A DNA stretch of 64,000 nt from positions 21,189-85,188 of the forward strand of contig JAFEGE010000005.1 in the NCBI GenBank assembly GCA_018240105.1. Direction: 5' to 3'. This stretch comes from Verrucomicrobiota bacterium. Lineage in GTDB: Bacteria > Chlamydiota > Chlamydiia > Chlamydiales > 2-12-FULL-49-11. This document shows positions 37,509-37,674 of this stretch, piece after piece. Under the pieces are notes generated by a model that worked only from the letters and a program-made list of their open reading frames with translations, was not told the origin of the DNA and searched no databases. The translations under genes and the position numbers were made by a program. How positions within the stretch are numbered: position 1 is the stretch's first letter; every line of letters starts with the position of its first letter.

Positions 37509-37674
37509 CCGAGAGTAATTCAAGAATCGGGATGTGGGCAAGAAGGTGCCTCGCCTTTAAAATAGGCAAAGCCGATGCCAAAATTAGCCAAACTTAAAAA
37601 GTTGGCTAAATTTTGGTAATTTCAAAGGTGAGAGCTACCGACGATGCCAACACCGATTTTTGAATCACGAGCGG
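37509..37674. repeat. Palindromic Correia/MITE-like element, copy d (166 bp)
   Basis: The left arm is ccgagagtaattcaagaatcgg and the right arm ccgatttttgaatcacgagcgg. TATA lies on both flanks (37505-37508, 37675-37678). The central hairpin gccaaacttaaaaagttggc lies at 37587-37606. Confidence 0.8.

Follow-up and report, generated by a model that had tools for sequence, protein, structure and literature searches.

RUP, the repeat unit of pneumococcus, is a non-coding repeat of about 107 bp whose TIRs resemble those of insertion sequences (ISs) of the IS630 family (IS630-Spn1); its target is TA, and its mobilisation is presumed to take place in trans (PMC2229807). Correia elements carry TATA at their tips as a result of TA duplication, have TIRs of about 24-26 nt, occur in full-length and internally deleted classes and form a stem-loop over their whole length (PMC2229807, PMC2649163). 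Unlike RUP, they are not linked to a specific IS in the review cited (PMC2229807). The Stowaway MITEs of eukaryotes, which derive from Tc1/mariner elements, make up a third comparison.

The repeats described here lie in a 64-kb stretch of bacterial DNA (the window, by which we mean the whole stretch that was analysed) and are very probably several families of non-coding MITEs of the IS630/Tc1-mariner type. The first-pass annotation had proposed mobile elements of a MITE-like or Correia-like kind, and TA duplication, insertion polymorphism and multiple copies bear this out. With the pair of RUP and IS630-Spn1 the repeats have in common ends that match those of IS630 elements, TA targets and many intergenic copies; they differ from it in their PVC host, in a different and longer conserved end (~26 nt), in the co-residence of several families, in the spread of one end family over two phyla and in empty sites that were found directly. 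The likeness to Correia elements (CREE/NEMIS) extends to the TATA tips generated by TA duplication, the TIR length, the size classes produced by deletion and the whole-length stem-loop, whereas the present ends, unlike those of Correia elements, match IS630 elements. With Stowaway MITEs they share TA duplication, shortness, lack of coding capacity and ends like those of the Tc1/mariner superfamily, but the host is bacterial and the partners belong to the IS630 family rather than to the eukaryotic mariner elements. The kind of element is already well known and its occurrence in PVC bacteria appears to be new; no description of MITEs or IS630 elements of such a kind in Chlamydiae or Verrucomicrobia was found in the searchable literature.

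Elements and families in the window

The window has a G+C content of about 42%, and we call its organism a PVC-group bacterium, as its named protein relatives include both chlamydial and verrucomicrobial ones. The source MAG is labelled Verrucomicrobia/Verrucomicrobiota at NCBI; the nearest named relatives of its M50 peptidase are the chlamydial Simkaniaceae and Rhabdochlamydiaceae (42-44%), slightly above one labelled Verrucomicrobia (39%). The phylum assignment of the MAG may deserve a check.

Element a (2147..2316; TA + TACCTCTTCC...GGAAGAGGTA + TA) is 170 bp long including the flanking TAs and makes up a MITE family of its own. Element b (14577..14740; TA + TACCATTCGC...GCGAGTGGTA + TT) belongs to a separate family with arms of 61 nt, from which the TTCAA motif is absent. 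Element c (22026..22199; TA + TACCCAAGTG...ACTTGGGTA + TA) occupies the divergent spacer between pssA and a 563-aa ORF and is joined via a shared TA to a mini element of 48 bp with degenerate ends, c0 (21980..22027). Element d (37505..37678; TA + TACCGAGAGTAATTCAAGAATCGG ... CCGATTTTTGAATCACGAGCGGTA + TA) is located in the spacer that separates the M50 peptidase gene from hup, and adjoins via TATATA a degenerate arm remnant of another element (37677..37709), which matches the d arm at 70%. Neither c0 nor this remnant had been noted before. Element f (58829..58903) is a d-type element reduced by internal deletion to 71 bp (58831-58901), with its TA duplications at 58829-30 and 58902-03. A solo d-type arm between convergent genes (34428..34457; TATA + CCGCTCGTGATTCAAGAATCGG + TATA; profile E 1.5e-7) is likewise a remnant of internal deletion, and a d-type remnant of 30 bp (50823..50852; profile E 6e-5) is found upstream of a 904-aa AMP-binding gene. 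Element e (57061..57217), finally, is an old, decayed palindrome with weak arms; its TACC/GGTA ends are not intact, and its right arm retains a TTCAAGAAT-like core.

The elements range from 48 to 174 bp, with arms of 26-61 nt that are 81-96% complementary (a, 91% over 44 nt; b, 92% over 61 nt; f, 96% over 26 nt). The palindromes a, b, c, d and f with their TA or TATA flanks proved to be real inverted repeats over their whole length, folding end to end far beyond dinucleotide shuffles with z-scores of -8.7 to -18.6 (a, -12.5; b, -18.6; c, -8.7). Folding is weaker for e (z -4.9), which had rightly been taken as a degenerate copy and lacks TATACC ends. The statement that TATA stands on both sides of every intact copy does not hold for b, which has TATA on the left and TATT on the right. 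A central hairpin common to a and d is present on inspection of the sequences, as had been claimed. The motif TATACC-N9-TCAA occurs 15 times in the window compared with 3.7 expected, a number that none of 100 shuffles reached.

A profile built only from d-type elements of other genomes was run on the window and recovered both arms of d (E 9e-9 and 1.3e-6) and of f as well as two solo arms (34428, 50823), at E-values between 9e-9 and 4e-4. These last two had been placed at 34432 and 50827 and are now supported by the profile; the other two arms that had been proposed, near 16432-16448 and 37001-37024, have no profile match. Detection of c was marginal only, and a, b and e were undetected. A single profile covering all copies therefore fails, and a, b and e are separate from d, in place of the one family that had been suggested. 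There are at least four families, namely d and f with their remnants, c with c0, a, and b, to which e is added as an old decayed copy; families a, b, c and d share only the TACC...GGTA/TA design.

The conserved end and its IS630 counterparts

When one genome per species was scanned, at least 119 stretches matched the query TATACCGNNNGTNATTCAA. Extension over the full arm was seen in 53 of the at least 119 matches listed, often with several matches per genome, and among the matches listed 51 of the 53 extended ones come from MAGs that are labelled Chlamydiota or Verrucomicrobiota or carry no label. The consensus of this end, about 26 nt long, is TATACCG(A/C)(A/T)CGTGATTCAARAATYGG, frequently followed by TTTTTGGC, and the 26-nt end of d is common to dozens of Chlamydiota and Verrucomicrobiota genomes. 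Paired arms in other genomes show preferred sizes of 164-175 bp (24 cases among the matches listed), 71-88 bp and 48 bp; all of these elements are bounded by TATA, with no additional direct repeat outside. The presence of one 26-nt end in two phyla points to a probable horizontal spread of the parent insertion sequences.

Complete ISs with such ends were found in chlamydial genomes. In a Chlamydiae MAG, an element of 1121 bp with TATACC...GGTATA ends (L019:3677-4797) encloses an ORF of 347 aa, the product of which matches the NCBIfam IS630 transposase model with 218 bits (cut-off 100) as well as Pfam DDE_3; the right arm of d is identical to the end of this element at 21/21 nt. The complete Simkania negevensis Z genome contains a homologue (L128:1447-2565) that is bounded by TATACTCAAGGTGACTCAAAAATTGG and TATACCCAAGGAAATTCAAAAGTTGG, with ends of the form TATAC(C/T)...GGTATA, and the ends of c match the second of these, which is a c-type arm. 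Homologues number more than 6700, and many of them lie on contigs of about 1121-1124 bp, as is expected of a repeat that has been assembled alone.

Alignment of the MITEs with the two sampled IS copies shows similarity that ends past the ~26-nt end, with unlike interiors. The link between the MITEs and IS630 lies in the end to which a transposase binds, as it does for RUP and IS630-Spn1 (PMC2229807), and the two sampled copies do not pin down the direct parent of any MITE family. Families a and b are tied to IS630 by the TACC...GGTA/TA design only, with the addition, for a, of a resemblance between its arm and the end of one truncated IS630 copy in a Waddliaceae MAG (TATACCTCTCTTGATTCAAGAGCCGG). 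A derivation of the left arm of d from the 3′ end of a transposase gene was considered and dropped, as d and the two IS copies are alike only within the ~26-nt end.

The fixed end of about 26 nt, conserved over Chlamydiota and Verrucomicrobiota and common to ISs of the IS630 family, runs counter to the earlier interpretation that structure rather than a fixed TIR sequence is what matters in these elements. The accompanying remark that the window holds no transposase was confirmed by tblastn with the IS630 transposase, which returned none within the 64 kb; nor did a cognate transposase turn up in some 100 kb from a close relative or in the 150 kb of d-bearing metagenome contigs. Because the window lacks a transposase, we infer that the elements are mobilised in trans by a transposase of the IS630 family.

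Copies, target sites and recent movement

The repetitive nature of the elements holds beyond the window, with further copies of d, a, b and c on metagenome contigs. An exact match to the left arm of d (20 nt) was found on 36 contigs in two JGI metagenomes; 27 of these contigs come from the same sample as the relative of the window's organism. About 20 full-length d copies on metagenome contigs are 87-95% identical. Short-read assembly of the window's own strain yields contigs that break within d. Element a has further copies at L145:2296-2465 (90.6% over 170 bp) and L137:5561-5680 (84%), b has a second copy at L162:2441-2605 (89.8%), which adjoins a d copy via TATATA, and c has one at L163:1265-1438 (83.9%). 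These copies occupy loci that are not orthologous to those in the window, and a, b and c are therefore repeat families too.

The close relative of the window's organism, with proteins at least 90% identical, is represented in JGI and ENA metagenomes and provides two clean empty sites. At the site of f, relatives (L135/L136) read ...TTTTGC-TA-TA-CTTTCAC, compared with ...TTTTGC-TA-[TACC...GGTA]-TA-TA-CTTTCAC in the window, where the spacer is longer by 73 = 71 + 2 bp. At the site of c, relatives (L133/L134) read CAGGT-TA-TCACAG with a single TA, and the window has TA-[c0]-TA-[c]-TA. The duplication is a 2-bp TA, and the inner TA of each apparent TATA belongs to the element. Of the TA or TATA duplication that had been envisaged, the 2-bp version is thus supported at both empty sites (f; c0 with c) and the 4-bp version is refuted there. 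A locus of 73% identity (L104) had seemed to favour a 4-bp TATA duplication, which the clean empty sites of the close relative ruled out.

Elements that abut one another bear out the 2-bp duplication, being joined by TATATA in six independent cases (c0 and c, and the remnant and d, in the window; L047; L103; d and a in L145; b and d in L162) and by an 8-nt joint once (L066); a 4-nt joint was seen in none. Stowaway MITEs, too, tend to insert beside one another. Clustered insertion has been described for carrot Stowaways (PMC3695323). Copies of d lie directly against a-type and b-type elements at L145:2125-2465 and L162:2441-2723, respectively. On L145 the facing ends are both GCGC, so that the junction GAGCGCTATATAGCGCTT is a near-perfect palindrome, and the a-type copy on this contig has the TAGCGC variant at both ends. 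The shared variant could reflect an exchange of ends between families.

Element movement in this lineage is recent. Relatives are without f, c0 and c, which are confined to the window, and hold a d copy at a site near 17.4 kb that is empty in the window; at 50.8 kb they carry a full-length d (L135:5815-5984) with the same right-hand boundary as the 30-bp remnant in the window. Element e, by contrast with these polymorphic copies, is kept at the orthologous site in relatives with 95.8% identity and is therefore older. The arm remnant at 37677..37709 and element b (in the acs-phoH spacer) are absent in relatives.

Two further comparisons gave no usable empty site. At d the comparison is uninformative, as a c-type solo arm occupies this boundary in relatives; window positions 37679-37738 and L129:4135-4175 share the junction GGTATA|AA(G/C)CC, which follows d and the arm remnant in the one and the c-type solo arm in the other. 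Either insertions of two different families have gone into the same TA, or a replacement of one end has taken place. The comparison at b is unclean, since b is located inside a segment of about 440 bp of the acs-phoH spacer that is specific to the window. Beside b, some 260 bp at 14741-15005 are also absent in relatives, whose spacer is 100 bp long; this stretch may be another mobile fragment or a small gene. Two other differences between the window and its relatives were observed. In the relative, an IS110-family transposase gene (DEDD_Tnp_IS110; L135:4447-5493) stands beside a shortened AMP-binding gene of 742 aa, a gene that in the window encodes 904 aa and lacks the insertion. In one relative contig (L135:12561-13996) an amino-acid permease gene is split into ORFs of 342 and 100 aa, whereas the window and another sample have it intact (465-478 aa); the gene may have undergone a frameshift or become a pseudogene, or the split may be an error of assembly.

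Gene context, arm symmetry and mobilisation

The elements lie near genes, as had been described, in spacers beside a helicase gene, acs, pssA, hup and two transporter genes. Element a is upstream of the DEAD-box helicase gene and b is upstream of acs, and d, f and the solo arm at 34428 come just after genes. Such spacers are where neutral insertions survive in a compact genome. Correia elements are known for creating promoters, binding IHF and being processed by RNase III; here, consensus promoter scans at d, f and c gave no more than chance and no match uses a junction hexamer, which gives no support to the suggestion that the junctions act as promoters. Terminator scans at d, f and c likewise found nothing beyond chance, and no terminator-like site scored. 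Element a was also considered as the source of the ribosome-binding site of the helicase gene, an idea that was dropped because the frame of this gene does not open until 1901, at a distance of about 250 bp from the element.

Several other features of the window were noted in passing. The DEAD-box RNA helicase gene (1-1901, minus strand) runs off the start of the window and is for this reason missing from the list of ORFs; tandem repeats of 51-54 bp at 1-262 lie at its 3′ end and probably encode a repetitive C-terminal tail. An AT-rich inverted repeat of 22 nt (TGATTATATGTTATAATTATTT / AAAAATTATTAACATATAATCA, with a gap of 4 nt) lies at 2711-2758, and contigs of the relative stop near the equivalent place, 236 bp past dtd. 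Genes for tRNA-Ile(GAT) and tRNA-Ala(TGC) are adjacent at 51999-52155, and the window contains no rRNA gene; the usual place of this pair is the 16S-23S spacer.

The first-pass annotation had also held that the arms co-vary within each copy, which is true of part of the sequence. Compensatory change was found in the interior of a symmetric subfamily, but the outer arms of d are mismatched in every copy and the end is fixed. In the window, the outer arms of d lack complementarity (CCGAGAGTAAT and CCGCTCGTGAT, mismatched at 4/11 positions); every one of the ~20 full-length copies carries TACCGAGAGTAAT and TACCGCTCGTGAT at its two ends, and the same asymmetry of GRGAG versus CTCG recurs in elements from Chlamydiota and Verrucomicrobiota. 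Complementarity of the outer arms is therefore unnecessary. The differing outer bases of a, c and d correspond to different IS630 ends and would reflect different IS630 lineages. Concerted change between the interior arms is real. In a set of 11 elements of the symmetric 164-167-bp subfamily from eight genomes, 94% of cells pair and 35/62 pairs have changed on both sides, where shuffles give 19.6 +/- 2.1 and slid controls 11-18.

This concerted change counts in favour of the view, taken in the first-pass annotation, that the elements are primarily hairpins of structured RNA (or of single-stranded DNA) that selection on folding maintains (for example as RNase III substrates, mRNA stabilisers or attenuators), with mobility secondary or dependent on the hairpin. 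All copies fold end to end (z -4.9 to -18.6), three compensated pairs fall within the 16 differences between two copies of a, and transcripts of bacterial MITEs form long stem-loops (PMC2229807). We nevertheless consider this account improbable. The outer 26 nt are conserved as sequence and not as mere structure, and the mismatches at 4 of the first 11 positions of the d arms persist in every copy and across phyla. Wobble pairs are not in excess in the symmetric subfamily, with 12 G-U/U-G cells against 18 A-C/C-A cells, which points to symmetry at the level of DNA rather than to selection on RNA. In young copies, compensated pairs number 3 for 16 differences in a, 2 for 28 in c and 0 for 19 in b, and d copies show a single exchange from G-C to A-T; most changes in the recent copies of d and b break pairs. 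Only tRNAs pass the Rfam gathering threshold in the window, and the best match at d (MIR8562) reaches 25.5 bits compared with a gathering score of 211. Transposition, moreover, is evident from the insertion polymorphism and the TA duplication. It is important to point out that, for inverted ends, the requirement that both suit the same transposase is indistinguishable from the requirement that the arms be complementary; covariation alone is therefore no proof of selection on folding.

Membership in the Neisseria Correia (CREE/NEMIS) family itself is very improbable. The design is similar, with TATA tips, TA duplication and a TIR of about 26 nt with an A-rich CAAAAAT..GG core, and the sizes of 70-170 bp, the shorter deletion forms and the whole-length hairpin are all Correia traits (PMC2229807). 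The hosts, however, are PVC bacteria, no Neisseria occurs among the at least 119 genome matches listed, and the interiors are unrelated. The end consensus is presumably unlike the Correia repeat as well. The elements stand outside the Correia family, as the host differs and no sequence relationship has been demonstrated.

That the elements are REP/REPIN palindromes moved by a RAYT (IS200/IS605-like), or simple terminators or chance palindromes, is scarcely credible: they are intergenic and palindromic and some come just after genes (d, f, 34428), but REPs and REPINs are palindromes of 20-40 nt that bear a tag (GTAG or CGTC), are associated with a RAYT gene and lack target duplication (PMC3733652), whereas the present elements begin with TACC, measure 70-170 bp and have long inverted ends and a TA duplication, terminators fail for want of a terminator-like site at d, f or c, and chance palindromes are excluded by copy number, conservation across phyla and insertion polymorphism. 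The elements are not REPs.

For MITEs of the IS630/Tc1-mariner type, the reading that we favour, the following course of events would apply. A transposase of the IS630 family, supplied by a copy elsewhere in the genome, would bind both ends of an element, excise it and paste it into a TA, which would be duplicated by gap repair; the cognate gene would be flanked by TACCGAGAG... and ...CGAGCGGTA. Later deletions would give rise to the 71-bp, 48-bp and single-arm remnants. Since both ends must suit one transposase, they would stay alike, which would appear as complementarity.

Simple cut-and-paste does not lead one to expect the strong compensatory change in the interior, which calls for a further assumption. 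Interior palindromy would most likely be kept at the DNA level, with symmetry restored now and then, for example by foldback or by arm-to-arm copying in gap repair; such restoration is more probable than selection acting on an RNA hairpin. We regard it as rather unlikely, if less so than the alternatives to the MITE reading, that the whole-length hairpin is actively maintained and matters to the life cycle of the element or to the host, be it through single-stranded foldback amplification, through repair that copies arm to arm or through a function of an RNA or DNA hairpin. If true, a maintained hairpin would explain the compensatory change over eight genomes and would be an unusual addition to cut-and-paste of the IS630 type.

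Overall, the repeats add a well-documented pairing of MITEs with IS630 elements for PVC bacteria (Chlamydiota, Verrucomicrobiota), with direct evidence of TA duplication and of recent movement. Repeats of this kind break short-read assemblies and account for strain-level differences in promoter and spacer regions, and they are usable as markers for the tracking of lineages.
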